Of a DNA stretch of 64,000 nt, positions 19,951 through 63,109 are shown piece by piece (positions within the stretch are counted from its first letter, which is position 1; each line of letters starts with the position of its first letter). Under the pieces are notes generated by a model that did no database searches, was not told where the DNA came from, and worked only from the letters and a program-made list of their open reading frames with translations. A program made the position numbers and the translations under genes. The DNA lies in contig JAUCBJ010004375.1 in assembly GCA_032718475.1 (NCBI GenBank), forward strand, positions 1-64,000. Reading direction: 5' to 3'. The DNA comes from Nemertoderma westbladi. Taxonomy: Eukaryota > Animalia > Xenacoelomorpha.

Positions 19951-21781
19951 CCGCTCCAGGTTACGTCGTGTTACTATAACAACGAATAACCTCCAGTACC
20001 GTGTTCACCGTATCACCTTACAAATAAACTAACTAATATCTAAATAAACAAGTATAAATTCTTACATAACACTTCCTTCGAGCGAACATATACACAAATA
20101 CACTTCCATTGCAGTGTTAGCAATTATTATATAGGTAAACAATCGAATCATAGAGCAGAAAATATCGAATAAAACTAACTTAAACTTCGATTCAATTATC
20201 ATATAATTATTAATACACTCATAGGTTTACAAATCACCTCGGTTAATGTACTAATTAATAGTTAAATATTGCAAAACTAGTTGAAATAGTATGCCATAAC
20301 TCTTGTTAATTACATTCATTAGCAATGCATTGTGCTTACATAATATTGTTAGAAATATGGGAAAAATTCAGATTGTTAGATTTATAATTACATCTTAGTT
20401 ATAATTCACCCTTGCGAGCAAAACTAAAATAATTATAAAATACAATTAATTACCTAGAGGTTAGAACATAGGTAATTTCATGGATTGAAAATAAACTATA
20501 ACACAAACAATTATAAGTATTATTATAAGTTGTAATAAACGCGCGCGCATCGATATCATAGGTCACGGGATACCACATACAGAACGAATCTAGTATAGTG
20601 GTCTTCAGGATTATCAAGGGCATTGTAAATTAGTTGAAAGTATGCCGAGTTTCGTTATTAACAAGATATCTCGGAATTGTCCTGTTTGAGCGGAATATTA
20701 ACTATACAGGACCTCGAAGGGGCCAATCACGACAAACCTCACGGCATGGATATGGAATTGCATACGCTGGTTATCTCTGGTTATGATACCTTACCCTAAT
20801 CCTGGTTTAACGCGCAAATGTGACACGTCGGTCACATGTTCAACTTTATCCATCATACGTACTGCGAAAGGTTGGGCCACCAAAAGGATACATTCCAGAA
20901 AGTGAGAACCTTATACCTCTTCTGCGCCCAATAGATTGGTTGGTTGTGGTTTTCTACTGATCGTAACGGTAGTAGCGTAGCGGTAACGAAATTTCAAACT
21001 CTTCACATCCTTTGGATCAACTTCTACAGCATCCAAAACGGTCGCTTCCTATATGATGCAACCTCTTCCTTCAGTCGGTAACCCTCTCTCATGATTCTGC
21101 ATTAAACGCCGATGATTGTCAATGCACCATAGTCTTCTATAGCTTCTGTGAAACTTAAAAGAGTCTGATTAGTCTAGGTAGGAAAGGCTTTGAGTTCACC
21201 AGAGCATCTAGGGTCCACACCCGCCATGCTCAGTCAATGCCTTCTAGCTGTCTAAATTTTGAAAATAATTGCGCTCTAAATAACAACAAATTGTTATAAT
21301 TAAATGGACAGACAAACATTTTTGCATTTAAAAAAAATATAAATGATGTCAATTAATTTGTCACAAAGTTTGTCGGAAAAATGGGAAGTTCGTCAATAAA
21401 TTGATTCTGGGATTTGCTACTCCAACGTACGCTAGACGATATGCTCTCCCCAGGACAGCTGGACAGTAGTACCAATGTACGTGTGAGACAGGTCCTTCTC
21501 GATTATTATTTTTATTATTTCTAAAAACAAAATTTACACAACTCGTCATTATGGTCTCCTTTGGAAATTCCCATGTTATTATATTACGACTTATTTTTAT
21601 ATTTTACATTAGACAATCCAATGTGTGAAAGGAAATATAATTATTTACAACTCTTACTTTATTTCGTAGGCCTACAATGAAACTTAGTTCGAAATTCCAT
21701 TCAATGGCAATAATCCGCTCCTATGAACGAAATGAGTTCATATTAACAATGGAATTTCGATAGGCCCTAAACGTTTATATT

Positions 21782-24555: not shown

Positions 24556-25844
24556 TTAGTCTTTCATGCGCGGACGGCGTTTACGCAGTTTTTTAAAGCT
24601 AGCCAGAGTCTTTTTCTCTTTGGGGCGAGCCACTTTACAAGGAGGGCTATAACTCATGGGTGAAGGGTGCAACATGATTGCATCAGAGGGTATAGGATTA
24701 TGGTCGGTGTATCCGCCAGTCGAAGTGCCGAGTTGATTGACATCAACGTCGGGGGAGAGGGGTCTAACGGCTTTGAGAGCTCGTTTCAAGACAGCCGCTC
24801 TTACGGGTCCTTTACGAGTGGTCTGAATGAGGGCCGTGGGTGGACCATAGGCAGTTAGAAACTTCCTTGGTTTAATGGTTTTTTCCAACTCGCGTTCGCG
24901 GGCTCGGTACTCGTAAGGCCGTCGATATACTTCCTGTAACTCGATATGCGTGATTTCTGTTCGACAGAAGCGAATAGATAAGGATGGAACGCATAAATTC
25001 CTTCGTAAGCGCGTCCAGGATAATAGCGATGGCGCGAATCACGATGTAAATCAGCGTTCGCTTCCCAAGCTCTAATGTAACGTAGTGTGATCATTTCATC
25101 TACGCTTTCCAAATCGCGATTAAAAGGGCAATCGAAACTGGCGTGTCCCTTTAGTGGACAGTGGTGACATTGAGTCATAAATTGAGGGCAAACCGCAAAA
25201 ATATGCAAATTATTAAATCTGCAATACGCTCAATAAATTTCCATCGCCGGTTGTTCGTGGAAATAGGAACAGCGGACGTTTGTGTCCATGGGCGTAACAT
25301 GGTCTCTCGATGCGCATAACCGACAACGCTGCCGAGAAACATAGTTGGCATGGCGATAATCGTACGCAGTGAGACACTGTGGACCTTGATACCATTCTAG
25401 GATGTAATCGTTGTCGCTGTTCCGAGCGCGATAGGCTGAATCTCCTCAGATTCTAGACATATTGGTTCGTCTTCCCAGTCTGTTACGAATAGAATTTTCG
25501 TGATCTATTCTCGTTTTATCGTTACGACGCCGCTGGGTATGATATTTAAATAGAACCATTTCCCTTTCGGTGTCTACATCGTCCGTATCATGTAAATCGA
25601 TAGGATGGCCGGTAGTTAGGAAGTCCATATACGTACCATTGCGATTCGTATAGCGAGCGGTGAATTTTCTATAGTCCGCTTCACGCGTAAGTTGTTCCTG
25701 GGACATCGGCGGTTCGATATAACGACCATCGTCCTCCGTAATAGTCGGATCGGCTTCACCGCGTATCAAGCTATCCACAAACGCTTGCAAAGGTAGATTA
25801 TATCGCTCTCTAATACCAAGGTCATCTTCTATCAATTCCGTCAT
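24556..25844 (-). pseudogene. Element B accessory ORF with zinc-knuckle region, homologous to the C-terminus of the D accessory ORF
   Basis: One frame from 25844 reads ...QRCRLCASRDH...IY*AYCRFNNLHIFAVCPQFMTQCHHCPLKGHASFDC...WEANADLH, aligning with D RRCKLCGSTRH...VCRWCNETDHSFHTCTVFISQCGYCGVKGHRSARC...WEGVADYH. Two in-frame TGAs and a likely frameshift near 24880. Confidence 0.75.
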
Positions 25845-33938: not shown

Positions 33939-33949
33939 ATAACTGTTAC
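33939..33949 (-). promoter_or_regulatory. Non-tRNA primer-binding site of B (GTAACAGTTAT)
   Basis: Abuts the 5' LTR end. Exact reverse complement of the sense LTR segment 34703-34693. Confidence 0.75.
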
Positions 33950-35183
33950 TGTTCGCGCTTTTGAAGACCTTTAGCAGTTTAACCTGCCAAAATTTATATG
34001 TCTTTTAGTTAATTAACACACCTTTAGCATACGACAATATTTTATGCTAATAAACAAAACATTAGCCGAAGCCAGCCCATGCGCGATCATTCACCCGATG
34101 GATCTACACCCGGGAGGCTGAATTCGGATGCTTAGATTTTATTATTGCAGTGTAAGGTTGCAGTGTAAACCTATTGTATTATTCGATAGATCACTAATAT
34201 GTAATTTCTGACAGATATTATTAACTTTCGGGAAATATTAACAGTTCCTTTAGGACGTGGCGCTCTATCTATTTAAACAGAGCTAGGACTTATACTAAAC
34301 GCAACGATAAGGCTTATGATTAAAGTATAAGTCGCATTCTTTAGGAAATGCTTTGTTACCAGTCACATCACACTCACAATCATGCACACTATTCTGCCGA
34401 CCGTCAGTATATTTGATCACACATGAAGAGAACAGCAATTGACTCAGGTAGTGTCTACTAAATAACATTAGATTCAATACACACCACATTGATATAAATC
34501 GCAATTGTTAGGTATAGCCGGTCTCTCTAACCTGTAGTGTATCAAGAAAATTGGGAATTAGGGTGATTTATCCGTATTATCCAAAGAGCAATATTTCCAT
34601 CAACAAATAGGTACAATTAATAACTGACGGTAAATAGCAGTACAAACAATATGATTAGTGCAGTTAAATTAAGTGAGGTAACACCGCCGCCGGTAACAGT
34701 TATACTTTCTATAATCTAAGCAGTTTACTAGAGTTCTTCCCTAAAGGCCGGTGTTTCTGGCTTAGACAGCAATAACAACAAAGTATCAAGTAAAAACAGT
34801 AAGACTGAACACTCTCCTTATGATCGACTAAAAGCTACACGTCGACAGGAAAAACCGCCCTGATTGGCCCAAGCCAAACAAAGAACCACGCGTCCAATGG
34901 CTGTTTCCATGTCAGCAACCAGCTGCTAGATGTCGTAATATGAATCATCACGGCTAAGCTGTGAAAGGTAGTTGGTGCATTACAAGTTTTTGCCTTACCA
35001 TGTCCGCCAAAATACGTATATAGCAGAATGATTTTTATGTCCGTTAAAACACCTGTAAAGGTACCTTGCGGGCGAGGGGAATATATATACAGTTAGAAAA
35101 CCTTTTTAGAGTATTCCAGCGCCTGGGGGGAAACTGGATTGCGAAGCAAAAGGGGCCAGTTATATCCCACAGAAGCTTTTACA
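33950..35183 (-). repeat. 5' LTR of element B
   Basis: Direct repeat of 23244-24477, flanked by TSD CTACC. Confidence 0.96.
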
Positions 35184-40131: not shown

Positions 40132-42334
40132 TGTTACGGTATATGGCGCTGTATCCATATTATTAGTCATCATGCAGTATGCAATATTAGTCCGTTATGC
40201 AGTATGCAATATTAGTCCGTTATACTGTATGTAATATTAGTCCGTTGTGCAGCATGATATTTTAGATAAGGCATAATAACGCAGTGGTATTTAGATAGGG
40301 AAATCGAAACACCCATATATTTGAATCCATCCATTTTGTATAGTATGTAGCCCTACCTACGTAATTTTGTATTAGGTTATATGTAGATAGTTCCAGGGTA
40401 AGTTTATTCGGACCCTGGATTCCGTGCTTGCTGATATTAGTTTTAGTAGGGCTAGCATATAGGGACGCTGTCCTGGCCATTCAGCAGCCAGAGACGTGAA
40501 CCATTACCATATATGGTAATAATTCGAGGAAGGGGAGCAAATAGGGCTACAATCCGGCCTCCTTATTGGACTAGCTGCTTCCAGGTTGGTCTAGTGCTAG
40601 CACGGACTGGAGAGCCAATAAGAAAGCGATTGAGTCACCCTATTGCATCACCCCATCCGGATCACCTATAAATTGGCGGTGTGCCGGTAGAGCCTCACTC
40701 TTATCACATGACACCTAGCCTTAGCACCTGTCTTACTGTTTTTCTTGATACTTGTATTTTTCTGCAATTTGCTAATTTGATTAATTTCTTGGAATGATTT
40801 GCTAGTGCGATTACTCTTGCTTGTGTTTCTCAATTAATTCCTGTCGATTACTGCTAATTACAACTGAACTATGATTTCTACCTTTTGATTAATGGTTCTA
40901 TGTGATTCTTTTCTGCGCAATAATCCTAAGGGATTCCTGAGACTGTCAGACTTTGTGATTTGCATGCGCCGCTACGGTAGCTATTAGCATAATGGAGGGC
41001 TAAGGCGCCAGTGGGCGGTGGGCACATCGGGGGGTTGAGCGACTAAGGGAGAGCAGAGGATTCAAAGGCAGGCAACGCTGGCGGGGGTCAACGTTGCGGT
41101 CGGGCAACTTGCGTGCAACGGGCAGACCTATCGCCGGTACAGTAATTAGGGGGCTGATGATCCAGGTTTCGTCTCTATTTAGTATTAGGGGGCAGGAATC
41201 AGGTTAGTTAGGAGTCCCATATGTACCCGTGAGAGGCCTGCACGTGTTACAGCGTATTAGAGCGTACAACGTTAAATGTAGAGTACGAATAGTGAGTCGC
41301 ATAATTGTGGACTATACAGTAGTTAACTGCATAATTGCGAACTGTAATTTCTGACGCTGATTGGTGTGTTATTGAAGTGTGCCTATGATTATGAATGTTT
41401 AGGTAGGCGCCCCCCTTTTCTTTGATTGATTTCTATTTCTTAGTTACAATAATTGGTTACTGATTAGGTCAAAGTAATACGGCAAAATTAGGCTATTACT
41501 AGCGAAACTTGTTGCGTAATAAATTAGAATTACGTATTCTGGAACTCTTAGTAATTAGTACGCTGTTAAATATTTGTGACTGTAATTAATTAGTAAAAAT
41601 TAAGAATTAGTACGCAGCATAGCGGAGAGTAGCTAAAGTAATAATTAGAGTACTGTAAACTATTCACGCTGAGCGGTTATTTGCATTAGCGGGCAATCAG
41701 CTAGATTGTACTATTCGGTACGCACGATACGCTAGTAATTTGCTGGTCTAAAGCCAGCTGCAGGCGATTTTAGACCCGGAGTGATGTTATTTACGTAGGA
41801 ACAGATACTGTACCGTTTTGATATTTAAATATTCTCGCATTCACACATTACGTTAGGGAACCTCCAGTATTCGCGATTAGAAAGACGTAGGTAATAGCGT
41901 GCTTTAATAGTGATAAAATTAGGCGTAAGAATACTCTGAGTGCAAGGCCTCTCGCACTCGTCTTAAGTAAGCTTAGGGAGCCGACTCGGGTTTATTGTTT
42001 TGGTTATTCCCGCGTGGCTCATAGATTCGAACAGTTAGCTCTCTATCGAGCGATCGGTAGAGAAAGGAACAAGCGATTTTGCAGGAGTTGTGTAAATTTA
42101 GTAAATATATTAGCGTACGGCAGATTAGCGCCATCTAACGATAAGTAGCGGTTTTGTATTTAGCAACCCTTACAATTTAGTAATATCACGCTCCTGATCC
42201 CCTTTACTTAACAGTAGAGCAGTTTTGTGTCTTATTGGTTAGACGAGAACTTATTAGATTGGCAGAAGGATATCAACGGGTATTGGTCTGTTCAACAGTT
42301 CTGCTGTTAGTATAGAGGTCGCGGTTGTTTATCA
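40132..42334 (+). repeat. 5' LTR of element D
   Basis: CCAAT near 40615, TATAAA at 40667-40672, AATAAA at 41518-41523, 25-bp tandem repeat x3 at about 40171-40250. Confidence 0.96.
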
Positions 42335-42346
42335 GTAACACGTGCA
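42335..42346 (+). promoter_or_regulatory. Non-tRNA primer-binding site of D (GTAACACGTGCA)
   Basis: Abuts the 5' LTR end. Exact reverse complement of LTR 41239-41250 (TGCACGTGTTAC). Confidence 0.78.
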
Positions 42347-43525
42347 TTTATTGGCTGTTGCTTGCAGCAGTCGATAGTGTATTCTTAGGCTGATTAGTAG
42401 TATCATAGTATTAGGCAATAAATTAGAGCACGTGATCGTCTGCTGTAGGCTATAGGCTAGCGTACGGTAAGACATTGAGCATATTCCTTTAGGTTGTTAG
42501 TTTAGATTACTGTATTCACTGGCTGCGTACAATAGTACAGTAGTACATTAGGCTGATTGCTGTTACTGCGTACGGTAGAAGGGACATTTGTTTTGCCGTA
42601 CCACACATACAGTATCATTAGGCTGTTAGGTTGGTGTACTGTTTTACTTACTGTACTGCATACGGTGGATGTACGGTAGTGCGTTTTGCTAATTGCGAAT
42701 ACAGCAGTTCCTTAGGCCTTAGGGCAAATTGTAATTAGTAAGTTTTTTGAAATTTTTAGCTAGGTTTGCGAGAATTCAGTTTCGGTCAAAATTATTTTGT
42801 AAAATTCTAGAGTTTTTGTACCGGTATGTTAGGTAACCGCTTAGTTATTTTATACCATCTGGAGATACATGGCAAGACGGAACTTCTGAGTTTGGGGTTC
42901 GTGTGGGTCTGCGGGTTCGGTTTGCAATCAGCGGAGAGCCTGAATCTTTGGACGCGGACGTGGAATCTCACAGCAAACAAGGTTAGTTGTTCTGTTGGCA
43001 CCAATGTGTTTGTGGAAGCAGTAAAAAATTATCGGTTGTTTAACTGCGAAGCTGAACTCAATTTATTAGTTAGGATATTTAGGTTTAGCCGGCCATGGTT
43101 TTTTGAATCGCTCAAGTTAGAGAGAGAGTTAGAGAGAGTCGCAACCCGAAGATGTAGCCACGCGCTAGTGGATACATATAATATTTGAAACTAAAATTAC
43201 GTTGATTAGAGCTATATATAAAATTAGAAATATTCGGGCGGCAAGTTTATTTTGAATATTTTGTATTAGATTCAAAGTTATTTTGTGCTATACCGGTATT
43301 TAATGCTATATAGTAGCTATATAATAATATTTTTGTTTAAATATTGTGTTAGTATTTGCTATAACTATATACCCCATTAAATTCACAATATTGCATTGCG
43401 AATTTATTTGACATTTGGACCAACTGATTATTAGACAAATAATTTGACCGTATTTCGGTTAAATTATAATAATATCTCGAACTTTTGCGAGATAATTTTG
43501 CCGGAAGGCAAACATTATTTAGACT

Positions 43526-46500
43526 ATGAGTGTCTCAGACAAAGAGGCACTAGAGGACAGCTACGAGACGGCGGCTGGACCGCCGACTGACGATAGCGTC
43601 AATATTACTGTTGACGACAATGCCGACTATGACGACGCAGCGAGCGACGCTGACGTAAGTGAACAGGAGGACGAGACAGTGACTAGTGAGGAAGAACAAC
43701 AACCTCAAGTAATAGTATTAGGATCCCCTACCGCTACTGATAGGAAGGACTGTACGGCAGCCCGGACAGAGGTGAGTGATAGGGAGAGTAGTGTAGCAGA
43801 AGCGAGAGCCCGGAGCCCGGTTTCCAGACCTGTGGGTATGGTAAGTGCCGTGGTCCCGACGGCTGTAAGGAGTACCCGTAGTTCCCGAAATAATCCTTCA
43901 AGTCCACCGAGTGTAAGTCAGGTAAGTGATAGAGAGTTCGACACTGCGATGAAGAAGAAACTTCGCGCGCATGCCGGACATATAACCCGGACGGCGGACA
44001 AGGTAAGGAAAATGTTAGCTGACTCAGCGAACATCGGGAGGGTAGAGTTAGCAGAGATTAGAAGAGAATATAACTCAGCGTTATTCAAGCAGACGGAGGA
44101 GCTTGCAGTCCTAGCAAAGAAGGCAGTAGAGTCTCAGTCGAGCGACGTGGCGACGAGGATTTACGACAGGGTTTTAGCAGCCTTGTTGGAGCACCGCGAG
44201 TTATCGGAGCGATTCCGACGAGTTAGGACGGAAAACTGGCTGCTATGGGCATCACAAATGCAGGCGACTCAGGTGAGTGACGCAAAGTTAAGAGACTTAG
44301 TGGAGCGAGAAGAGATCCAAGATAAAGAGGAGCGCCGTTATCAAAGGGAAGTTACTAGCTGGTTGATGCAGAATGGAGTGGTGGTACCGGGTCAGGTGCT
44401 ACCAACCACGGAGAACATCCAACAGAGGACGTTGACTCCACCTGATGACGCATCTAGAGACAGCGGCGATTCCCAGGTTAGTCACGCGCGAGGTAAGGTA
44501 ATATGTGCTAGATCCCTTGTTTCGCACAACTCGGCGGAGGAGAGAAGACGCCGACTGGACGAACAGCAGGCGGAAGTTTTGTGTGCATCGGAAGCACGGA
44601 AGGAAGCTGAGCGGGAACGGGAACGAACACGTAAGTTAGACGCGAAGTTGCGCGAACTGGAAGATAAAGGTAAGCGTGAGCGAGCGGAACGCGAGCAGAA
44701 GGAACGCGAACTTCAACTTGAACGCGAACGCAAGGAACGCGAACTCGAACTTGAACGCGAGCAGAAGGAACGCGAACTCCAGCTCGAACGCGAACAGAAG
44801 AAACGTGAACTCGAACTTGAACGCGAACGTAAGGAACGCGAACTCGAGATCGAAAAGGAGCGACAAGCGTTGTATGAAGAAAGGGCGCGTGTGGAAGAAG
44901 AGGGCGCAGCGAGACGAGCGAGGGAAGAAGAAGAACGTAAACTGGCGCAGTTGGAAAGTGCGAGATTAAGTTTAGAGAGCGAAGAACGGACTAGGAAGGC
45001 GAATGAAATCGCCGAGAAGGGGATGCGAATGATCGAAGAATGTGGGGCGAGTGTAGGGACTGAGTTGCGAGAACTGTTCGCACTGCAGAAGGCCGAACAG
45101 GAAGCGAGAACTCCGACCATACGCGAGTCGACGACGACCAGAATTCCTATACCCGGTCCAGCTATTACGAGTACACGGATCGCTAAACCATTCTCTACAT
45201 ATCGCACGCCAGTTGGTATTAGTGCTTCACCCATCGCGCAGAATCCACGTCATCGGAACACCGCACCACTATACACCGAACGAGAGAATGAAGAGTTTAG
45301 AGAAACTCCGACGGGACGAGTACTTGGCGAACCGAACCCGCGGGTTTGGAATACGCGGACGGAGCGCCGACCCAGTTCGACGGAGAACTTCCGGGTTAAA
45401 CCGGAAGAGGGATCATATGAGAGACAGCGGATTACTCAGATAGAGCCGACTATACAACAGAACCCTAGCCAGGAATTTATTACGAGGGATGAGTTAAGTG
45501 CTAGTTTAGCGCAAGCTATATCGCCGCACATCCAACCTATAACGGACATGCTTAGCAACCTACGGTTAAAGGAAGCAGCCCAGGTAAGAAGTAATTCTAA
45601 TCCCAGCAGGCCTGAGTTAGATAAAGTACAGCCTAGTCAACGAGTACGCATATCGGAGGAGACTATACCACATAGACCTCAGGTAAGGACGCCTGTCCCG
45701 AATATTCATAATCCCAATTTCGAAAACTCAGCCGAGAAATTTATTCAGGAGGCTTGGGTCAGGGCCTCGGGGCGCAAACCATCGCGAGCGCTAAGGACTG
45801 ACACCGAGTCAAGTGATGAAGAGGAAGAAATGAGACGTCAGAAGTCCCGAAACTATAAGGAAAGAAGGACCGACGCGGAGCAGGTAAGTTGGAACCACCG
45901 GGAAAGGACCAGACTTAACAACCCTGCGGAACTAAACCATTTGTTAACCCGGAACGACGCAACCCTTAGGGACATAGGTAAGTTTGCTGCTAGGCAAGGA
46001 CTGCCGACGCAACAACCCCAGAAGTTTATGGGCAACCATAAACACTGGAGGACTTTCAAAACCTATGTCGACGAGCAGCTAACCAACAGCACCTTTACTC
46101 CCAACGAGAAGTTCAACTATTTGCTTCAGATGCTCCATCGAGAACCTAGAGCCATTGCTGATAACTTCGTCGGCAATGAGAGAGCATTTGAGTTAGCGAT
46201 GAAGACGCTTAGTGACATCTACGGGAATAAAACCAAGATGGCGCAGTCAATAGTAGAAGACTTGGGTAAGGGCGGAAGGATTACAACTCCGTTAGAGCTG
46301 TTGAACTTAGCGAACGCTATTTCGAACGCATTGGATATCTTGAAGACGGTGAATCTACCTCATCATGGTGATCACGCCGAGGTTTTGAAAGGCGTAATAA
46401 GACATTTAAACATGCGTTATCGACAGAAATGGCGCAAATTAGAGAATAAGTTGGAGGGCCAAGGTAAAGTATTGACACTTCAGCATATTCATGACATGAT

Positions 46501-49500
46501 AGCCACAGACGCAGTAGCAGAGATGAAATCAAACTTCTCAGAAGAGAATATGAGGGAGTCTAAACCTGTTACCGGTAAGTCTATGGTAAGTTTTGACGAT
46601 GACAGGACCACTGTGACATTTAACTCAGTAGACAGATATAATTCGAATACCCCAGCCTTTAGATCAGACTCGCGAGTATGGTCAGGTGAGCGGTTAGATA
46701 GACCTAGGTTAAAGCAACAGGAGTTGCCGGATGGATTTGTAGGTTGCCAATACTGTTTACTAAAGGAGGTAAGATCTGACGACCATAAGTTGGATAGTTG
46801 CAGACGGTTCAAAGAATTAAATTCGGAACAGAGAAGAGTTCAAGTGCGGACGTTGGACACCTGTTGGGCATGTCTTGCGCCAGGTCATGTACGGCGGCAG
46901 TGCCCGAACAGCAAGGACGGATGCATGGAATGCGGCAGACTACATCACAAGTTGCTACATGCGGATTTCCACACCCCAACGGACCGTTACTTACAGCGAA
47001 ATCCTCACAGGAAGGGGAGCAAAGAACCCGTATCGATAAGAAGGAATACGTACACTGGCATCCAGGACGATGGTTATCAACCAGGTTCGTCGGACGAGGA
47101 TGGCGAGTCGAGCGCGAGAGAAGTGACCTGCCAAGGTTTCACCGCGGATAGTTCATCGACCAGCGCGCGGACGTATTTATCATCGGCCACGTCGGAAATA
47201 TTTAGCGTGATTCCGGTGAAACTCACTGGCGATAAGGGATCGAAGCGAATATATGTGATGTTGGACACTGCGTCCACATTATCCTATATCGACGAGGAAG
47301 TGGCGAGAGCTGTTTCTAGCTTCCAGAACGCCGAGGAGATCCAAATAGAGTTGAAGTCTATGCACGGGGTAGGAGACCTCAAGGGACACAGAATTTCGGT
47401 AGAACTAGATTCCCTACTTCCGAGAGACCAGCATACTCGACAAGAACGGAAAGCTTTGCCATTGGACGGATTTAAGTGTCTAGCTATGAAGGGATTCGGC
47501 AGGCAGTTAGGTAAGGTGCCGCTGATGAGTCCCATAGCACAGGAGTATTTTGACAAGCTCAGGATACCCAGACACCAGGTAGGTTATAGGAATGTTTCTA
47601 TGTTAATTGGTGCAGAACAGCTGATCGCACACCAGATATGGGAAACGAGACCAGCTGAGCCGCATGTCAATGGACCGCATGCCCATAGGACTATATTAGG
47701 TTGGTATACACGAGTACCCATGTCTTATGAGTTTACAGGTGGCGACAAGCCAATGGATAGATACGACGAATTACAGCCTATAACCCAACCACCGTTAGTA
47801 GAACCACCAGACATAGACGAGTTTAGGAGAACCTGTATTGACCACTATAGTGACTTTAGCGAGTCGGACGAGGAGTTGATTCCCGATAATGTTAGGTTGT
47901 CGGAACCACTTCACAACGACCGGACAGATAGTGAACCCGAGGACTACTGTTATCAGACCCGTGGGTCTGGTTCAGCGGCCCACGCTACCTATTTGACTAA
48001 CGTTTTGACTTATACAGACATAGTGGAGGGTCAAGTGGCTAAATATCGAGACCTAGACATTTTCCAATACAGTGAGGAGGAATTACAGAAGGAATTGATA
48101 CGCCAGGACCTCGAGACAGGAGCCAGAACCGTCGAATGGCTGGATAGGGACGCAATGGAACCCGGTGGATATGACCTAGTCATGTCTACTGATGAGAAAC
48201 GGTCGTTGGAGATGATGGAAGACACCATACGTCTACTACCGACTGGACATTTTGAAGTTGGAATGTTGTGGCGTCGACAACCACCTAAGTTGGAGAACAA
48301 CTACAATTTAGCCTTGAAAAGATTAAACGGAGTAAGGGCTCGGTTGTTGAGGAATCCAGACATTAGGGAGAAGTATTGCGCCCAGATCAACAACTATTTC
48401 GCCAAGGGATTTGCTGGGAAGGTAGAGGACCCTGACTTAGTGACAGACCAGACTTATTACCTTCCACACCACTATGTGACTCACCCTGACAAGCCAGACA
48501 AAGTCCGAGTAGTCAACGACTGCGCAGCAGTCTATAGAGGTATGTCCCTGAATTCAGAGTTGATGGATGGTCCCAACCTGAACAACTATTTGATTGGAAT
48601 ACTGTTGCGTTTTAGACAGCGGCGATTCGCATTTACTTGTGACATCGAGGCGATGTTCCACCAGGTAAGAGCCTGTAAGGCAGACCAGGATAGCCTTCGC
48701 TTTCTCTGGTACGAGAATGAAGACTTATCCGGCCCAGTGGTTACATACCAAATGTACGTTAGGATATTTGGCGCCCGCGATAGTCCGAACGGCACGCTGT
48801 TTGTTCTAAAGAAAACGGCAACAGCCCAGATTGGTAAGTACCCAGTAGAGGTTATCGAGTCCATCTTGAGAAACTTCTATATGGACGACGGATTGGTGTC
48901 CAAGGACACAGCGGAACAAGCCATAGAAGTGGCTCATGGCCTGCAAGAGTGCTTGGCTACAGGGGGTTTTCCTCTAACCAAGTTCACTACTAACTCGGAG
49001 GCCCTATTAGAGTCGTTCCCGGTGAAAGATCGCGGGAGCGGAGACATAGAATTGGGGGTAGAACCAATCCCCATGGCGCGAGTACTGGGACTCGCTTGGA
49101 ACCCGAACTCAGACAAGTTCCAGGTAAGAGTTAGATTTGAGCCCAGTAGCCCAGACAAAGTTTTGACTAAGAGGATTTGCTTATCGACATTGAGTAGACT
49201 ATTTGACCCGATGAACTTTATCAGTCCGGTTATATTACAGGCACGAGCGTGCATGAGGAAAATTTGGTTGTCCGACGTAGAGTGGGACGAACCAATATCT
49301 CCTATACATGCAAAGCAGTGGAGGGAGTGGGAAGCCGAGTTGCATCTATTGAAAAATATAGATGTACCCCGTTCCTACTTTCCGAATCAGCTGGTATTTC
49401 CAGCTGATTTAGAGCTGCATCTGTTCAGTGACGCAAGTGACACCGGCTTTGGTATGGTAGCCTACCTTCGCCGAGAGGTAAGTCAGGACAAGTTTGAGAC

Positions 49501-51899
49501 GGCCTTTGTGACTTCTAGATCAAAGACAATGCCGGTCAAATACATGACTGTCCCTCGTGCAGAGTTACAGGCGGCTGTAGTTTCAGTCGAGGTAAGTAAG
49601 CAAATAACTGAGGAGTTAGACACGACATTGACCTTATTCTATTGGACGGACGCATCCTTGGTTTTAGTATACATTGCGGCCGACAATATTGCACTAAAGA
49701 CATTTGTGGCCAATAGACGCGCTCAGATCGTTGATTTTTCGACGAAGGAACAGTGGAGACATTGTCCGGGAGTGTTGAACCCGGCCGACATAACTTCGAG
49801 AGGTGCAATGCCGGCGGAATTCTGTCAGGAAGAGTCGCAGGAGTTTTGGTTGCATGGACCTGATTTTCTAACGAGGACACAGGAACATTGGCCAGAGCGA
49901 CTAAAGATAGTGACCAATCCGATGCCTGAAGATGCAGAAGTCAAAGTGGAGAAAGTCTCTAAGTCGAAGTCTAAAGCCAAACTTGAGTCATTGGAGCGGC
50001 CCGAAGAGTCATTGGAGCGGCCTGAAGAGTCATTGGAGCGGCCTGAAGAGTCATTGGTGCGGCCTGAAGAGTCATTGGAGCGGCCCGGAGACCTGTCAGA
50101 CCAACAGACTTACGTGACTACTAGGTCCGGAAGGGTAAGTTATGACATCAAACCACCCTTACAGACTAAACCGGAGTCACAATTGGTAAGTGACGGACAG
50201 AAAATGACCGACACAATGGAGTCTTTGGTTTCCAAACCTGCGGGTTTGGATTCGAAACTTCCATTAGTTAGCGGACAACCGTCACTGGCATTAGAGTCAT
50301 GCAGTGTTTATGACAAATTACTAAATTCGTCTGCCTCTTGGCTGACAATTTGTAAAAGAACTGCGTGGTTAAGCCGATACATTTTGTACCTTTGTTTAAA
50401 ACATTCGAAACATTTGAGAGAACCATTGAGCACCAATAGTGAGCGAATTCGGAAATTGAAACAACCTCTGACAGAGGATGAGATTGATCAAGCGGAATTA
50501 AGGCATTTGAAACATTATCAAATGTGTGCCTTCCCTAAAGAATTCCATCTATTATCGGCTCAACGACCAGTTCTCTATGAACCCCTTAGAAAATGGAGTC
50601 CATTAATCCATAAGGGTTTAATTTGTCATAGATCGAGAATCCAGACTGTCGACATAAACTCACAGTTTAGGTTCCCAGTGATAATCCCTAGTCACCCAAT
50701 AGAATTGCAAAGAGCGATTCTATGGGATATACACAAGAGGTTACATCACGCGGGAAGGTTACACTGTTTGTCGACTGTTTGTTAGACAGCGATTCATTCT
50801 ATTGCAGCCAAGCAGGGCAGTCGGCACTATGTATGACGCCTGTCTGGTTTGCAAGAGAGTGAACGCCAGAGTATTGGAACAGGAGATGGCTGAACTCCCG
50901 GAAGCGAGAGTGCAGGCATATGACCCACCCTTTACGAACACAGGGGTGGATTGTTTTGGTCCGATTGAAGCAAAGAGTGGACGGCTGACCCACAAACGAT
51001 GGGGTCTGCTACTGACATGTATGGCTAGTAGAGCCATACACATCGAGCGTGTGGCAGACATGTCGACCAAATCTCTGCTCCTGGCCTTGAAGAGATTTAT
51101 GGCCAGGAGAGGACTAGTAAAGGCGTTCTACTCCGATAAGGGTACAAACTTTGTCGGAGGGAATAGCGAGTTGAACGCGGCTCATAAAGTAGCACAGAAT
51201 AAGGAAATTTCTGTAGCACTTTTGCCGCAACGAGTAGAATGGAGATTTAATACTCCAGAGAGTCCTTGGAGAGGAGGAAGTTGGGAGCGTTTGGTTCGCT
51301 CTGTGAAGCAGGCCATTGCCAAAACATTGCCTGTGAACAAACAACTTACCGACGACGAACTGGTTACAGCTTTCATTGAAATCGAGCATACCCTAAACTC
51401 GAGGCCGATAGCTATGTTGCCAGACGGTGTTGCATTAACGCCGAATCATTTGCTAATGCAGAGTCCAGCATTTCTTGTGCCGGCATCAGAACCCATTAGT
51501 GCCGACCTATATAGTCGTAAAAGCTGGAAAGTGACTCAATTAGTAGCGTACACATTCTGGGAATATTGGCGGGAATACTATCTTCCCACCATATCCACCA
51601 GAACAAAGTGGTACAAAACGGTTCGGAGTCTCCAAAGGGGAGATTACGTGTTGATAACCGAACCCATTGTCAAGAGAAAGTATTGGGAGACTGGAGTGAT
51701 CTTGCACACACACCCAGACGTGCAAAACATAGTGCGCACAGTCACTGTGAAAATTAGGTGCAAGTGTCCGCACCCAAAAAAGTGTAAAACTAATGGTTTA
51801 CACACCTTGGACCGACCGGTCCAAGATATCGTGTTATTAGAGGAGACACGTATCGAGACGGGAGATTATAATTTGTCTCCTGCCTCAAAACAGAGTTAG
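43526..51899 (+). pseudogene. Element D gag-pol polyprotein (Gag, PR, RT, RH, IN) broken by one 4-bp duplication
   Basis: The 2419-aa ORF has MLDTAS, FYMDD, LFSDAS and NPADITSRG. The integrase ORF 50802-51899 is in another frame. TGTT is duplicated at 50776-50783, and removing one copy restores HCLSTVRQRFILLQPS (A has HCLSFLRNRFVLIKPS). Confidence 0.95.
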
Positions 51900-52956
51900 T
51901 GTTAGACGCAACTCACTTCGTATGCATTCCTCGTATGCAAATACAAGGAAATGCATAGGAGCGGGGTTGTGGTGATTTGCGTTGAGTTTTGTCTGGTGGG
52001 TATCAAAACAAAATTTTATTTCAAAAGTGGAAAATTAAAAATTTTAAAATTAGAAAAGTGAACCCAAGACAATTCCAGACGCTGTGTATAGACGCGTTTT
52101 AGAATTTGTCTATAGATAACAGTAATTTGAAAAGTCGTGAAGCCTGGAAAATAGCATTTAGAAACCATGGTGACGGCTATATTACGTAGGAGTGTAAATT
52201 GAGTTTAGCAACTTCCACAGATTGGTGCCAACAGTGCAACTAAGGTGCTAAAGGTTAGTAGCACCAGAGGCGTGCACGGACCCCACTCAGTAGTTTGCAG
52301 GATGTGTGATGTTCGATTATCAAACCTGTGGGTTTGGTATAGTCGAGTATTGTGGCTATAGTCCTTTCTAACTACTGTAGTTTAGTACGAGTAATGGGAG
52401 TAGTTTGGGCATCAAAAAGTGAGTTGGTCACGGCCAGTTTATCTCCAAAGTTTTTGCGCTATGCATGGGAATAGGTTAGAGGATAGTTAGTTAGGAAGAG
52501 ACGGGATCTAGAGAGTCGAACCTGAACTGCTGGAAGGCGGGGGGGTTCGGGAGGTCTGTCCTTCGGCGACATCTAACTGATTTACCCACATTGTAGTTGG
52601 TTACGTAACGGCACTTATTGGGATATATATATGTATATACGCGTAACATAATGGAGAGGGATATTAGAGCGCAACCGCGCAGAGGATTTACTGCCAGAGA
52701 GGAGGCGGAGCTACCATTCGCGCGACCAGGATGTAAAGACTCTAACGTTTACTATCATGGGCGGTCCGTGATGGAGCTGAACGGAAAGTACAAGCCAAGT
52801 TATGATAAAGAATTACGGAGAGAAAGAATGAGAGCGTTGGGGGACCGGATGGAAGTCTTGCGGAGAGAGTATCGCACGCGGTATCCCTACGACTTTGCTT
52901 TGGACGTGTGTGACATCAGCGCAGATCCGGACGAGGAAATCGCATGACTATACCAT

Positions 52957-55900
52957 ATGAATATGTATTTACGACACGAGGAGCCTCTACCTGCAGTCCG
53001 AGACCAGTTCGACGGAATGCATCTGTATCGGAGGACTCGAGGCGAGGATCAGGAGACGCCGAAAGTCTTCAGCGTATACAAGCTCTTCTACAAGTGTGGT
53101 GAATGCATGAATAAACAAGACGTGGCGATTCCCGACCGACTAGACGAGCAACATCCGGAACCAATATTAACGCGATGTCCAGCTCACCAATTCCTTAGAT
53201 ACAACGAGGGAGGTTACCCGATGAGCAACCCGATGATCAGTATCGACTTCAGCGGAAAGCGACCTCCGAGACCCATTACGCCGACCGTTACGACATTAGA
53301 TCCGTATACGGAGATTAAACCCTGTTCGACACCCAGTTTGATAGAGACGGCAGCGGCCATTTCGCTGTACCGAGCCTACAAGGATCTAGAGGCGCGGCGC
53401 GAAGCGGCGCGGGACTCGGGTACCAAACCCGCGGGTTTGGAGCTCTCGAGTCCCTGGACTGCGTTTACTTCACCTCACCGAGTGAGAAGCCTCACGCCTG
53501 AGCATCAGGACGACATAGACGCGTTGCGGCAGGAGGAGCGAGCGGTGAAGGCGAAGGAGTTATTTGAGAACAGGATAGCGGAGTATAATAAGACCGCGGA
53601 TAGACATCAAGAGGAGACGAGGAGAGTGACCGGATTTGTTCCACAGGTCGTATCTCAACCCGGACCGGTGTATTATTCCGACGGCACTGAACCTGCGATA
53701 TTAGTAGATCATCCGGAGTCGCGAGAAGCGATACGATTCTTGCCGATGGTAAGAATGGCGGACCATTGGAACGTTGACTGTTTACGGGAAGTTTTATGCG
53801 CGAAGTTCTTGCGTGATGTCCCAATGCAGATCACAGATTACGACACGTTGGATAAGATTGGAGCTCCGGGGAAGGAGAGTAAGTTATTCGGATGGTTGGA
53901 TAAGTACATCAAGGTATGGGTCGCGGTGGCTACATTCCCAGACGACGAGGAGGTAGACCAGACGTGGCTGAGGAGGAAGGGTTCTTATACCCGATATGAT
54001 GACCACAAGGCGATCGAGCGCATGTGGACCCCATCAGATGAGATTCAGCGTCAGTGGAGGAAAACGGAGGAATCACTGCAGGATTGGAGAGTGATGTTCT
54101 ACGACAATGAAGGAGGGTCCCATCAGGAATGCTTGACTAGCAAGTGTATTCAAATTCGTGCGGCCGATGGTGTGACTCATGTGTTTATGCGTGTGAGGGC
54201 GGATCGAGAGAGACCGGAGCCCATCATAACGACACAATATCGGAAGGGGAAGGATCCTAGGGAACAGATTTTGGAGGTATGCAGGCGAGGAGGTATGCAT
54301 GGAGCGGAGCGTATCGACGCCAGGATGTTACCCAAGAAAGTTAGAGAGGCTATTCTCAACCAAGATTACGTCAAGGTGGGATCGGGAGTCCAGAGCGATT
54401 TGGAGAGCGACTTCAACGCTATGACTGATCTGGAAGATAGATTGCCTAGACCGTTTGTCGACACCAAGCTATTGTTGCTATGGGCACAGGATATTGGAAT
54501 TTATAGGGAGTATCCCAACTCTGCCAAGACTGGTATGGGCTTTATAGCACACTTGTTGTATAATTGGGACTTTAAGTTGAAGACGCAGAAGAAGTATGAG
54601 GAGGCGTATGGCGAATACAACACGCCACCGGGAGCGGAGTTCAAATCCCACTTCAAGCGGCAAGCGTTAGTGTATTGGAACATTTGCGCGCCACCCCGTG
54701 CGTCGCTACAATATTATTTGGTGCTTGAGTCGAACACGGTGACTTGTTTATTAGCGGATATCGTTGCGCGAGTTTTGAAGCGTCATCCATTGGTATTCGG
54801 AGGAGATCAATACGTTCGCTCGAAAGGGGGAATCCAATCCGACGTGATGAAGCGTTTCTTAACCCCGTTCTTCAACCAATCGTTAGAGAATACGTCGATG
54901 GTGAGGAGAGGATTAGCGATATTCGAAGGAGTATATCGACAGAACATCGGAGATTTGGGAGACCGACCGTCGATGGAATATCCGACGCCAGAAGCTTTGG
55001 AGAAGTGGTTCGGGAATCAAACCCGCGGGTTTGGTACTCCCTTCCACTCGGAGGCTGATAGACCTGTTAAGGAGGGCTGGCCGGAGACTTTAGTAGAGGT
55101 GTTCGGAGTAGATCTTCCGGTGGAGAAGACATATCCGAAACGAACGCGGGAGGAAATATTGGAGATAGAGGATAAGGGCGAGGATGTTTACTTTGTTCCG
55201 GATCGACAACCGTTGACTGGAGAGGACGACATCGGATTAGACATTGGGAAGGAAGGAAGTGCGAAACCGATTGGAGACCTCATATACGAGAGGGCCTGGT
55301 TTCCACAAGCGCGTAGGTGCAAATTGTGCGGCAGCACAAGGCACAATCTAAAGTCGTGCGACGCGGTAATAGAGGCGGCGCATAAGGTCTGCCGTTGGTG
55401 TAATGAGACCGACCATTCGTTTCATACGTGCACCGTCTTCATTTCTCAATGCGGATATTGCGGGGTAAAGGGACATCGTAGCGCAAGATGTCAGCTACGA
55501 GATGATTCCTTTCAAAACCATAGCGCTAACCTACTTCGGGAGATGTTAGATAAGTGGGAGGGTGTGGCCGATTACCATATCCAAGCGCAGATGCGTTGGT
55601 TACCATTTAAAGCGGGATATGGGTTTTGGGCGGTAGACCCATCGCATGTTGCGTACGAGCCATATTTACAATCGCTACCACAATATCAGGAGCTCATCCT
55701 AACTGCTCAAGACCTTCCACAGAACACTGGAGTTATCGTAGTTCGAGAGTACTTCAGACAATTGAACATGGACAATAAGTACACATGGAACTTCGTTGCC
55801 ATTTGCGATCGCATTACGAAGGGTGTATTTACGGAGACTAGAAAGGTGGTACGCGCGCGAGGAGATTGGAGGATGGCGGCTATACAGTACCGCAACGAAT

Positions 55901-56091
55901 TCTTGTTGACTCATGTGCCAGTGGGTTCATTGACCGCTGAGAGGATACAAGAGCAAAGGATCGCAGCGACCACAGCGACGACCGCTGGAGCGCGAGGCTC
56001 GCGGAAAGAACCAGGAGGAGAGGTCCAAGACAAGCGTCAAGTCAAGGACGACCACTACCATTCGATACCTAAAGAGGTGAGGTCTCTATAG
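52957..56091 (+). CDS. Element D accessory ORF: DEDDy-like 3'-5' exonuclease domain plus three CCHC zinc knuckles
   Basis: FYDNEG (ExoI), CIQI, LPKKVREAILNQDYVKVGSGVQSD (ExoII), FVDTK, GMGFIAHLL, WN...LQYYLVLES (ExoIII-like) at about 54090-54770. CKLC..H..C, CRWC..H..C and CGYC..H..C at about 55318-55492. May begin at ATG 52651 across a TGA at 52945. Confidence 0.8.
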   Translation: MNMYLRHEEPLPAVRDQFDGMHLYRRTRGEDQETPKVFSVYKLFYKCGECMNKQDVAIPDRLDEQHPEPILTRCPAHQFLRYNEGGYPMSNPMISIDFSGKRPPRPITPTVTTLDPYTEIKPCSTPSLIETAAAISLYRAYKDLEARREAARDSGTKPAGLELSSPWTAFTSPHRVRSLTPEHQDDIDALRQEERAVKAKELFENRIAEYNKTADRHQEETRRVTGFVPQVVSQPGPVYYSDGTEPAILVDHPESREAIRFLPMVRMADHWNVDCLREVLCAKFLRDVPMQITDYDTLDKIGAPGKESKLFGWLDKYIKVWVAVATFPDDEEVDQTWLRRKGSYTRYDDHKAIERMWTPSDEIQRQWRKTEESLQDWRVMFYDNEGGSHQECLTSKCIQIRAADGVTHVFMRVRADRERPEPIITTQYRKGKDPREQILEVCRRGGMHGAERIDARMLPKKVREAILNQDYVKVGSGVQSDLESDFNAMTDLEDRLPRPFVDTKLLLLWAQDIGIYREYPNSAKTGMGFIAHLLYNWDFKLKTQKKYEEAYGEYNTPPGAEFKSHFKRQALVYWNICAPPRASLQYYLVLESNTVTCLLADIVARVLKRHPLVFGGDQYVRSKGGIQSDVMKRFLTPFFNQSLENTSMVRRGLAIFEGVYRQNIGDLGDRPSMEYPTPEALEKWFGNQTRGFGTPFHSEADRPVKEGWPETLVEVFGVDLPVEKTYPKRTREEILEIEDKGEDVYFVPDRQPLTGEDDIGLDIGKEGSAKPIGDLIYERAWFPQARRCKLCGSTRHNLKSCDAVIEAAHKVCRWCNETDHSFHTCTVFISQCGYCGVKGHRSARCQLRDDSFQNHSANLLREMLDKWEGVADYHIQAQMRWLPFKAGYGFWAVDPSHVAYEPYLQSLPQYQELILTAQDLPQNTGVIVVREYFRQLNMDNKYTWNFVAICDRITKGVFTETRKVVRARGDWRMAAIQYRNEFLLTHVPVGSLTAERIQEQRIAATTATTAGARGSRKEPGGEVQDKRQVKDDHYHSIPKEVRSL

Positions 56092-58210
56092 GGGTGTCGA
56101 AAACAGGCGGCGGCGGACTCGTGAGGGTCTGGGGGCACGTTAAATTTGGTATATAGTGCAAGGGAGTCACTGAAGGCCCTCGTGTCTGACGAACCATGAA
56201 TTGCCATGGTGCCGTGGTTCCGTCTAGTCGGCATGTTGCCGTACTGCCAGTCCTGTACACAGTAGGGGTGGTGGCATGGCGTGATTTGTGGTTCATGTGG
56301 TGTGAACTGTGATTTGTATCTGGGCGATCAGTGGCAGTTTGCTTGGGGCTTGGATGGGTTCCTTTGGCCATCAGCTGTTCCGTTTTTTTGATACTATATG
56401 TTATTGTCTCCATGTTCAGCTGATTGGTCTTTGGGATTTGTTTGGGTCTTTGAGCTTTCTGTTGCTGTGGGTACGTGAGTACACGTGATTGTGTGTATGG
56501 CCACTGCGAGTGAGTGTGGGAAACCTTGCCAGTTGGTCCAGACGCTGCTGGTATTAGTAGGACCATACTTTACTGCGCCCCAGCATGCTTTGTACACACA
56601 AGTTATTTTACCCTGACGGTAAAATAAAGTACTCTCGACTCTTTTCAAGTTCTAGTCGATACAACTAGTCCCTCCTGATTTTGACACCGATTTTGTCTTT
56701 ACCGATTATGTCCTCTGTGTGTGCATGGTATGTGTCCAATTTGTGTACTTGATTTGTGAACATCTGTTGAGTACACGTGTACAGTGACTGGTAAGTGGTT
56801 ACTTGTTCTTAGCTTTTGAGCAAGACAGTATTGTTTTTTCAATACTGCCGGCGAGGCAGGTGAAAACGAGTCAAAATTCCATGTTGGGTAGCGCAAGCCC
56901 GCTTGGGACAAGACCGTCGGTTAGGCCCAAGGGCGACCTTGGTGCTCGATCGCTATCGACTGGTCCACCTGCCGGTTGACTCTCTGAGTTGGCTCAATGT
57001 ACAGTCAGGCCACAGTAAGTTGACAGTAGCTGACCATCTGGCTACACGTTCGACGAGCTGTGCCGGTGTGATCGGGGAATTGAAAATTGAACCCGGGAAG
57101 CATCGGGCCATCCCCCGGCCCGGTCTGATAATAACATCAGTCAGACTGGCCCCAGGGGTGGTGGAAAGGTGTCCGCCTTGTGGGTGCGCCTCCGGGAGGA
57201 GCCCAGAAGGACACAAGCGTATAGAAGCGCAGCGGTTGCAGCGCAAGGCGCAGGGGGCGTCTGAGAAAGCGCGTGTGCAACTGCAGAAGGAAGAGTTGGC
57301 GGAAGCGACCACGGGAGCGCGACAATTGGGACGAGGCCGAGGGAGAAGTGCGAGCCGGGAGTCTGTCGGGGCTCAGGGAACGTCGTCGCCGGTTCCGGGG
57401 AGTGACGCCTCACGGACGCCGTCAACAGAGTCGACTAGAGGACGACTGGTGTATCTGAGCAGAGGGCGAAAGAGAGGAGCGAGCCCGAAGAACCCAGGAG
57501 CGGGTTGTTAATGCATCGTATCACAGGGCGACAGACTCTAGATATATACATCATCGTCGCTCTGATGTATATTGTAGCATTTTAGAAATATCCGACTAGA
57601 CTCATATACACTAGTTGCATAATTATTTGAATTTATATTATGAGAGAGGCGAAGGAAGTGATTGGGGAGACAAACTTGCGGGTTTGGCTTACTCCTTTCA
57701 CTTGTCCTAGCAATCATCAAACCAAGATGATTTGCGTTTTTTATAAGAAATTAAGTAAAGTCCGAAAATGAAAGAAATTATTACGTATTTTATATTTAAT
57801 TTGATTATCGGCCTTTAATGCAATTTAGTTAAAAATTTAGCCTCAAATACGTTTATATTTAGTTTATCTTGTTAATGTTGATCGTCAATTTGAGATGGGA
57901 AATGGGGGACATTGTCCTAGCCATGTTTCATTTCAATATGTAAATTGTCAATTTGTAAGTAAATAAAGGAAGTAATATTTTGTAATTTAATTTTGTATGT
58001 AGTAATCATTATGTAGAACGAACGAGAAACAGTATTTTGTAATTTTAATTTGTATGTAAATTCATTATGCAATATCTATGGCAATATTTGTAAATAGTAG
58101 AATTATTATGTTATTTAGATTGGTTGGAAGAAATTTATTTTGTTTTGTATACATCACCTTATACTCTTCTACGATTGGAGGGAAACATTGTATGATTTCC
58201 CTTGGAGCGG

Positions 58211-60413
58211 TGTTACGGTATATGGCGCTGTATCCATATTATTAGTCATCATGCAGTATGCAATATTAGTCCGTTATGCAGTATGCAATATTAGTCCGTT
58301 ATACTGTATGTAATATTAGTCCGTTGTGCAGCATGATATTTTAGATAAGGCATAATAACGCAGTGGTATTTAGATAGGGAAATCAAAACACCCATATATT
58401 TGAATCCATCCATTTTGTATAGTATGTAGCCCTACCTACGTAATTTTGTATTAGGTTATATGTAGATAGTTCCAGGGTAAGTTTATTCGGACCCTGGATT
58501 CCGTGCTTGCTGATATTAGTTTTAGTAGGGCTAGCATATAGGGACGCTGTCCTGGCCATTCAGCAGCCAGAGACGTGAACCATTACCATATATGGTAATA
58601 ATTCGAGGAAGGGGAGCAAATAGGGCTACAATCCGGCCTCCTTATTGGACTAACTGCTTCCAGGTTGGTCTAGTGCTAGCACGGACTGGAGAGCCAATAA
58701 GAAAGCGATTGAGTCACCCTATTGCATCACCCCATCCGGATCACCTATAAATTGGCGGTGTGCCGGTAGAGCCTCACTCTTATCACATGACACCTAGCCT
58801 TAGCACCTGTCTTACTGTTTTTCTTGATACTTGTATTTTTCTGCAATTTGCTAATTTGATTAATTTCTTGGAATGATTTGCTAGTGCGATTACTCTTGCT
58901 TGTGTTTCTCAATTAATTCCTGTCGATTACTGCTAATTACAACTGAACTATGATTTCTACCTTTTGATTAATGGTTCTATGTGATTCTTTTCTGCGCAAT
59001 AATCCTAAGGGATTCCTGAGACTGTCAGACTTTGTGATTTGCATGCGCCGCTACGGTAGCTATTAGCATAATGGAGGGCTAAGGCGCCAGTGGGCGGTGG
59101 GCACATCGGGGGGTTGAGCGACTAAGGGAGAGCAGAGGATTCAAAGGCAGGCAACGCTGGCGGGGGTCAACGTTGCGGTCGGGCAACTTGCGTGCAACGG
59201 GCAGACCTATCGCCGGTACAGTAATTAGGGGGCTGATGATCCAGGTTTCGTCTCTATTTAGTATTAGGGGGCAGGAATCAGGTTAGTTAGGAGTCCCATA
59301 TGTACCCGGGAGAGGCCTGCACGTGTTACAGCGTATTAGAGCGTACAACGTTAAATGTAGAGTACGAATAGTGAGTCGCATAATTGTGGACTATACAGTA
59401 GTTAACTGCATAATTGCGAACTGTAATTTCTGACGCTGATTGGTGTGTTATTGAAGTGTGCCTATGATTATGAATGTTTAGGTAGGCGCCCCCCTTTTCT
59501 TTGATTGATTTCTATTTCTTAGTTACAATAATTGGTTACTGATTAGGTCAAAGTAATACGGCAAAATTAGGCTATTACTAGCGAAACTTGTTGCGTAATA
59601 AATTAGAATTACGTATTCTGGAACTCTTAGTAATTAGTACGCTGTTAAATATTTGTGACTGTAATTAATTAGTAAAAATTAAGAATTAGTACGCAGCATA
59701 GCGGAGAGTAGCTAAAGTAATAATTAGAGTACTGTAAACTATTCACGCTGAGCGGTTATTTGCATTAGCGGGCAATCAGCTAGATTGTACTATTCGGTAC
59801 GCACGATACGCTAGTAATTTGCTGGTCTAAAGCCAGCTGCAGGCGATTTTAGACCCGGAGTGATGTTATTTACGTAGGAACAGATACTGTACCGTTTTGA
59901 TATTTAAATATTCTCGCATTCACACATTACGTTAGGGAACCTCCAGTATTCGCGATTAGAAAGACGTAGGTAATAGCGTGCTTTAATAGTGATAAAATTA
60001 GGCGTAAGAATACTCTGAGTGCAAGGCCTCTCGCACTCGTCTTAAGTAAGCTTAGGGAGCCGACTCGGGTTTATTGTTTTGGTTATTCCCGCGTGGCTCA
60101 TAGATTCGAACAGTTAGCTCTCTATCGAGCGATCGGTAGAGAAAGGAACAAGCGATTTTGCAGGAGTTGTGTAAATTTAGTAAATATATTAGCGTACGGC
60201 AGATTAGCGCCATCTAACGGTAAGTAGCGGTTTTGTATTTAGCAACCCTTACAATTTAGTAATATCACGCTCCTGATCCCCTTTACTTAACAGTAGAGCA
60301 GTTTTGTGTCTTATTGGTTAGACGAGAACTTATTAGATTGGCAGAAGGATATCAACGGGTATTGGTCTGTTCAACAGTTCTGCTGTTAGTATAGAGGTCG
60401 CGGTTGTTTATCA
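58211..60413 (+). repeat. 3' LTR of element D
   Basis: Direct repeat of 40132-42334, followed by TSD ACTGG. Confidence 0.96.
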
Positions 60414-63096: not shown

Positions 63097-63109
63097 TATG
63101 AAAATTGAA
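63097..63109 (-). promoter_or_regulatory. Non-tRNA primer-binding site of A (TTCAATTTTCATA)
   Basis: Abuts the 5' LTR end. Exact reverse complement of the sense LTR segment 63896-63884. Confidence 0.78.

Follow-up and report, generated by a model that had tools for sequence, protein, structure and literature searches.

A DEDDy-like exonuclease and zinc-knuckle gene behind pol in a large BEL/Pao retrotransposon of Nemertoderma westbladi

Background

Why would a long terminal repeat (LTR) retrotransposon carry an exonuclease-like gene behind pol, and does such a gene take part in the priming of reverse transcription? The question is raised by a stretch of 64,000 nucleotides (nt) from the xenacoelomorph Nemertoderma westbladi (GenBank assembly GCA_032718475.1, contig JAUCBJ010004375.1, positions 1 to 64,000; hereafter "the window"). 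A retrotransposon of the BEL/Pao group, element A, exhibits here a third open reading frame (ORF3, 52651..56091), located 752 nt 3' of its integrase stop. An earlier reading of the DNA letters alone (the original prediction) had described it as an accessory exonuclease gene that might make the primer of the element. All coordinates below are those of the window, on the forward strand unless the minus strand is named.

Except for the profile issued by ICTV (the international committee for the taxonomy of viruses), publications are cited here from partial texts. DEDDy exonuclease genes are known as third genes in bdelloid rotifers, in the LTR retrotransposons Juno1/2 and Vesta2/5 and in Terminons (PMC5408684, PMC6431247), which bears out the precedent invoked in the original prediction. 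No exonuclease gene of a BEL/Pao element was found in the literature searched, including the available parts of PMC3118150, PMC9094657, PMC11662393 and PMC6829131, a search that did not cover the older papers on nematode Cer elements. Cer elements, which also belong to BEL/Pao, carry a phlebovirus-like env (PMC9094657). Such an env is absent from element A. One of them, Cer7, is said to possess an exonuclease-like accessory region together with a self-encoded primer.

Results and discussion

ORF3 is a conserved, selected and patchily present accessory gene, which joins a DEDDy-like domain to three CCHC zinc knuckles. A full HMMER scan with ORF3 identified seven relatives among 1.84 billion proteins (E-value 5e-11 to 1e-4). 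Their names are uninformative, and each of the seven combines an exonuclease-like part with three CCHC knuckles and a tail that is conserved among them. This defines an unnamed protein family with remote members across several public collections. Word-seeded homolog searches added no relatives, and none was found in viral contigs, in phages or in one of two metagenome scans. One relative, P0001, has a decayed nuclease (the ExoI glutamate is missing) and doubled knuckles.

The DEDDy-like domain of ORF3, of the EXD2/WRN type, is encoded at 54085..54770. Its motifs were located in an alignment of ORF3 with six relatives, P0001 being left out. The ORF3 sequence YDNE (ExoI; D at 54103, E at 54109) falls on a D-x-E in 5/5 relatives covering the site (VDTE, IDVE, VDVE, FDLE and IDTE); a second alignment put it a few columns off, and the column of the family profile matches IDCE of EXD2. 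VGSGVQSD falls on the ExoII aspartate (54397), which is invariant in 6/6 relatives and also matches EXD2 and WRN. At ExoIII, YLVLE (Y at 54715, E at 54727) aligns with Y-x3-D in four relatives, C-x3-D in one and Y-x3-E in one (P0002). The atypical ExoIII (YYLVLE) pointed out in the original prediction is confirmed by this alignment to be in register (Y590-x3-E594), with a D-to-E change also present in P0002. An insertion of 35 residues is found behind the third strand of the domain.

A profile of the six relatives, built without the query, gives ORF3 64 bits against 4.5 bits for the best of 2000 shuffles, the six having themselves been found with ORF3 as query. A profile of the domain (ORF3 and five relatives) matches EXD2 (E-value 3.4e-6) and WRN (E-value 0.05), all other rows being at an E-value of about 1 or above; the EXD2/WRN match spans ExoI to ExoII and the W-x-L-x-x-x-Q-x-x-Y helix of ExoIII. 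The RNase D/WRN-exo/Mut-7-like motifs that had been claimed are thus above chance. In the Atlas, the PF01612 cluster came third (0.91) with 156 shared features, 170 being typical of true family matches. Foldseek with a low-confidence model returned EXD2 or WRN in the first six rows and NrnC, REXO2 and Nibbler lower, none of them significant. The DEDDy fold, very probable for this domain, is assigned chiefly from the motifs and from the match of its profile; that it is active as a nuclease is probable. No helicase or HRDC domain was detected in ORF3.

Behind this domain, the three CX2CX4HX4C knuckles (55318..55491; starts at 55318, 55390 and 55450) agree in number with those originally claimed, and resemble the knuckles of Lin28 and of retroviral nucleocapsids. 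They are followed by the tail common to all seven relatives (xExxADxG...GF...Y, 55520..55700), which has no Pfam family. ORF3 may possess an additional zinc site N-terminally, where a C-x2-C ... C-x2-H pattern is encoded at 53095-53190. The best 19-residue hydropathy of ORF3 is only 1.34, and that of its upstream part is about 0. There is therefore no membrane segment, as the original prediction had stated, and ORF3 exhibits neither the hydrophobic segment nor the Pfam or significant PDB match of an env product. The upstream 98 amino acids (aa) gave no usable match in the Atlas.

The frame had been presented as a 1044-aa ORF after pol, in the env position. The open frame and its place are correct, but the length is not. 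In this copy the frame is open at 52948-56091 (1047 aa from stop to stop, 1044 aa from the first ATG); an ATG at 52651 is in frame with it, and a single stop at 52945-52947 intervenes. Contigs of other runs exhibit another letter at this codon (99.8% of the depth in X1 and 99.1% in X3). The stop therefore belongs to this copy alone, and the family gene has 1146 codons and starts at 52651. Programmed read-through at 52945 (TGA-CTA) was also considered, and was rejected on the same ground.

ORF3 is under purifying selection, its upstream part included. Silent variants make up 29/32 of those classified against 30% expected (a p-value of about 1e-12 and an omega of about 0.045), an estimate that covers only the first 500 coding bases of ORF3 and is biased to common variants. 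The silent share is 18/20 upstream of the private stop and 11/12 downstream. The variants were the best-supported 40 of 47 rows, over 600 nt at the 5' end; 33 are in frame, of which 32 were classed with the break codon omitted. A splice-acceptor-like TTGTAG does lie at 52591..52596 as predicted; its first base differs in about 100%, and its final G in 62-63%, of the contig depth in X1 and X3. Since both bases vary among family copies, TTGTAG is not a conserved acceptor.

Element A, the carrier of ORF3, is a young and unusually large BEL/Pao retrotransposon of 20,282 nt. It is delimited by two direct repeats of 2203 nt with TG...CA ends and four differences (5' LTR, 40132..42334; 3' LTR, 58211..60413), and is flanked by an ACTGG target-site duplication (40127-40131 and 60414-60418). 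The gag-pol frame (43523..50785) encodes DUF1759 (Pfam E-value 6e-9), knuckles, a protease, a reverse transcriptase with YMDD, PF05380 (5e-39) and the start of the integrase. The remaining integrase (rve-like, with DUF5641 at 1e-17) is in a different frame (50703..51899), the integrase of this copy being split at about 50703-50785. These specific gag and pol domains, the order of protease, reverse transcriptase, RNase H and integrase, and the TG...CA LTRs with their duplication assign the element to BEL/Pao (Belpaoviridae), the setting already given in the original prediction. The ICTV profile describes Belpaoviridae of 4.2-10 kb with LTRs of 0.2-1.2 kb and an 18-nt tRNA primer site (PMC8742986). 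With 20.3 kb, element A has double the size usual in the family; its LTR length and primer site are also outside the typical description, these traits being descriptive ones. A TATA-like box (40667..40672) is present in the LTR with a CCAAT-like box about 50 nt 5' of it, and transcription would start near 40700. The purine-tract position (58196..58210) ends with GGAGCGG, the same as in elements B and C described below.

Contigs from other runs span all of element A, and contigs joining across internal deletions of ORF3 suggest shorter derivatives of the element. In X1 and X3, ORF3 has about half the contig depth of gag-pol, a difference not used here as evidence. The gap of 2.1 kb between ORF3 and the 3' LTR (56092-58210) contains a 215-codon frame without ATG (56864-57511), and the depth at 56578-57191 is much higher in run X5.

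The primer-site position of element A (42335..42346) abuts the LTR and does not start with TGG. It is complementary to a 12-nt segment of the element's own LTR (41239..41250; second copy at 59318-59329). The same signature is found in two other BEL/Pao elements of the window: the primer site of element B (33939-33949) pairs with its own LTR over 11 nt, and the 13-nt primer site of element C (63097..63109, minus strand) is the complement of LTR positions 982-994 in the same element, this LTR being 1768 nt long. The three sites (12, 11 and 13 nt) differ in sequence, pairing across elements extending over 6-8 nt only. Other positions of the leader equal the pairing in 0/1121 cases for A, 2/905 for B and 1/765 for C, and shuffles do so in 0, 2 and 1 of 2000, respectively. 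The self-complementary primer-site signature of A, B and C is thus real and element-specific. The pairing segment lies 743-1084 nt inside the LTR end in the three elements, so deep that the primer end must arise through a processing step of some kind. A search for a self-encoded tRNA or ribozyme found neither.

Self-priming is known for the Tf1/sushi, Tcn1 and TAR elements (PMC6317226, PMC4600332, PMC3601003). As in Tf1, Tf2 and Tj1, the primer site of A, B and C directly adjoins the LTR and is complementary to 11-13 nt of it (PMC4600332, PMC6317226). Tf1, Tf2 and Tj1 are Ty3/gypsy or copia elements in which the 5' end of the RNA serves as the pairing segment, whereas in A and C this segment lies about 480-580 nt behind a TATA-like box. 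The available parts of the same accounts mention no exonuclease gene.

Several further observations concern these LTRs. An AG precedes each pairing segment by 3-8 nt (TTTAG in C, TATAG in B and GAGAG in A), and could be the end of an LTR intron. The motif GTCTTACTGTTTTT..TTGATACTT is common to the LTRs of A (40731-40760) and B (near position 380), just behind the presumed start; the two LTRs otherwise do not align. A truncated LTR at 3150-5117 is 74-84% alike to that of A, well conserved just 5' of the pairing segment and falling in conservation directly behind it.

The window provides a natural control for the role of ORF3, namely a close relative of element A with the self-priming signature and without ORF3. 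Element A is nested inside gag of element C, which is on the minus strand, and element B inside pol of C, all three elements being young. Element C extends from 18183, where it borders a 35-nt satellite, to beyond 64000, with a length of about 14 kb by subtraction. Its identity to A amounts to 57% in pol and to 44% in gag (B is 23% identical to A in gag). None of the gag-pol domains is missing from C, although this copy is interrupted, and its LTRs are 99.8% alike over 891 comparable nt. The spacer of 1831 nt between its integrase and LTR (19951..21781, minus strand) has a longest frame of 80 aa and gives no profile match to ORF3. Element B (LTRs at 23244-24477 and 33950-35183) lacks reverse transcriptase and integrase; it contains a broken homolog of the knuckles and tail of ORF3 (24981..25358, minus strand; hhalign 97%), in which no remnant of the exonuclease was found.

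The original prediction had named autonomous self-complementary families lacking the ORF as the case that would refute a priming role of the exonuclease, and element C comes close to being such a case; the priming role is not supported. Only a requirement in cis is thereby excluded, because C is represented by one copy, for which help in trans is conceivable; with A, B and C in the same genome, ORF3 may be supplied in this way. ORF3 is quite likely not needed in cis for priming. Given that a relative as close as C, with the same signature, lacks it, ORF3 is probably an optional helper.

Among the seven relatives, P0001 is the one for which the genomic context is known. On contig L001 (124-2025 and 2931-3203) it has two knuckle-tail modules, and LTR-like non-coding DNA follows. 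This DNA exhibits a self-complementary pair of 13 nt that looks like a primer site, CTCA followed by GTCACAAAT (4/300 shuffles), a lead only, the element type being unproven. An acidic frame without Pfam match begins near 3390 of the same contig.

What, then, does ORF3 do? The reading that we tentatively favour, with a probability of about 0.38, is that the conserved ORF3 protein is an RNA-binding 3'-to-5' trimmer, dispensable for priming, that blunts the silencing of the element by small RNAs of the host. The protein would be translated from a separate message and not as a part of Gag-Pol. Its knuckles and tail would hold single-stranded RNA, and its nuclease would shorten unprotected 3' ends, either of immature small-RNA guides or of element-RNA cleavage fragments feeding small-RNA production. 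The gain and loss of ORF3 among close relatives and the repeated capture of such genes by retroelements that replicate in unlike ways fit a conflict with the host better than a core role in replication. The repeated DEDDy capture by unrelated retroelements also suggests a use independent of the priming mode (PMC5408684). The small-RNA target is the weakest step of this proposal.

Several points weigh against it. ORF3 has no Pfam match, and a single-sequence PDB search was also without significant match. Both AlphaFold models are poor (pLDDT 32 and 41), the single-sequence one being uninformative, and the VIA Z scores with Nibbler (3.8) and WRN (3.6) are level with those of unrelated coiled coils. 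ExoIII exhibits a glutamate for the aspartate. Nothing in the analysis points directly at small RNAs, and the rotifer DEDDy families are still covered by small RNAs, with no clear gain in copy number in the available text (PMC5408684). Element C is one copy that may have lost ORF3, in the same genome as A, and the context is known for only 1/7 relatives. Finally, since the nuclease is decayed in P0001 and the knuckles stand alone in B, the RNA-binding half may outweigh the enzyme.

This last point would be accounted for by a non-catalytic RNA binder, in which the nuclease fold is a scaffold (compare Maelstrom and EXD1) and the knuckle-tail part serves the export, translation or packaging of the element RNA. 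The D-to-E change at ExoIII and the insertion of 35 residues agree with it, as does the retention of knuckles in B and P0001. We nevertheless consider it unlikely: the ExoI D-x-E is kept in ORF3 and in 5/5 covering relatives, the ExoII aspartate in 6/6 and an ExoIII acid in 6/6 (P0001 left out). A helper within the particle is a possible, if doubtful, alternative. Its knuckles, similar to those of Lin28 and nucleocapsids, would bring the ORF3 protein into the RNA-protein particle, where it would polish frayed 3' ends of RNA or cDNA and, optionally, the self-primer, for which the deep pairing segment calls for a processing step. However, ORF3 is outside Gag-Pol, hence its packaging is not automatic, and element C has moved recently without it.

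It is very unlikely, in our view, that ORF3 is the obligate primer maker, trimming LTR RNA to the primer-site duplex and exposing its 3'-OH, with gene-less elements borrowing the protein in trans. Element A has ORF3 together with the primer site, B retains a remnant in addition to its primer site, the P0001 contig has its 13-nt pair, and the shared genome of A, B and C permits borrowing. Against an obligate role, the cut in the element RNA is made in Tf1-type priming by the RNase H of the element. Moreover, C is without ORF3, B and P0001 are without an intact nuclease, and self-priming of the Tf1 type is described with a cut within the RNA of the element itself (PMC4600332). We would give as small a chance to the wider scheme in which a large BEL/Pao group self-primes from deep LTR RNA, with a knuckle-guided exonuclease that trims to the duplex and serves C and other relatives without the gene in trans; if true, it would be a tRNA-free priming route unlike that of Tf1. 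By analogy with large RNA viruses, a proofreading function during reverse transcription of an unusually long RNA (about 19 kb) might also be imagined, and is the least probable of these proposals. The size of element A, twice the 4.2-10 kb of its family (PMC8742986), and the action of WRN-type domains on DNA (PMC5408684) would be in its favour; ORF3 is however separate from the reverse transcriptase, its knuckles suggest RNA, and C, without ORF3, likewise reaches a considerable length (about 14 kb).

The preferred reading, a trimmer directed against host silencing, concerns a gene which resembles the rotifer DEDDy ORF3 in several respects: both are located behind pol, in the env position, without membrane segment and with one acidic residue changed. 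The changed residue is the last acid in element A (DEDE), in contrast to DEED in the rotifer ORF3. The carrier is here a BEL/Pao element, and the gene has 1146 codons, with an N-terminal third that matches no assigned domain, a triplet of CCHC knuckles and a conserved tail, the two genes being likened by description only. The human EXD2 and WRN exonuclease domains are the best profile matches of the domain, and Nibbler/Mut-7 is among the top weak fold matches; in contrast with these proteins, ORF3 is only remotely similar, joined to knuckles and carried by a mobile element. ORF3 extends the capture of exonucleases by LTR retrotransposons from rotifer elements to BEL/Pao. The exonuclease-like domain is uninterrupted in this copy and therefore assayable, which bears on a question open since 2017, the role of these nucleases.

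Other features of the window

The remainder of the window contains further repeats. The 35-nt satellite, in which more than 200 copies are arranged in tandem, occupies 10080-18180. A 24-nt repeat (8260-9394) adjoins a decayed non-LTR retrotransposon, the reverse transcriptase of which lies at 5889-6878.

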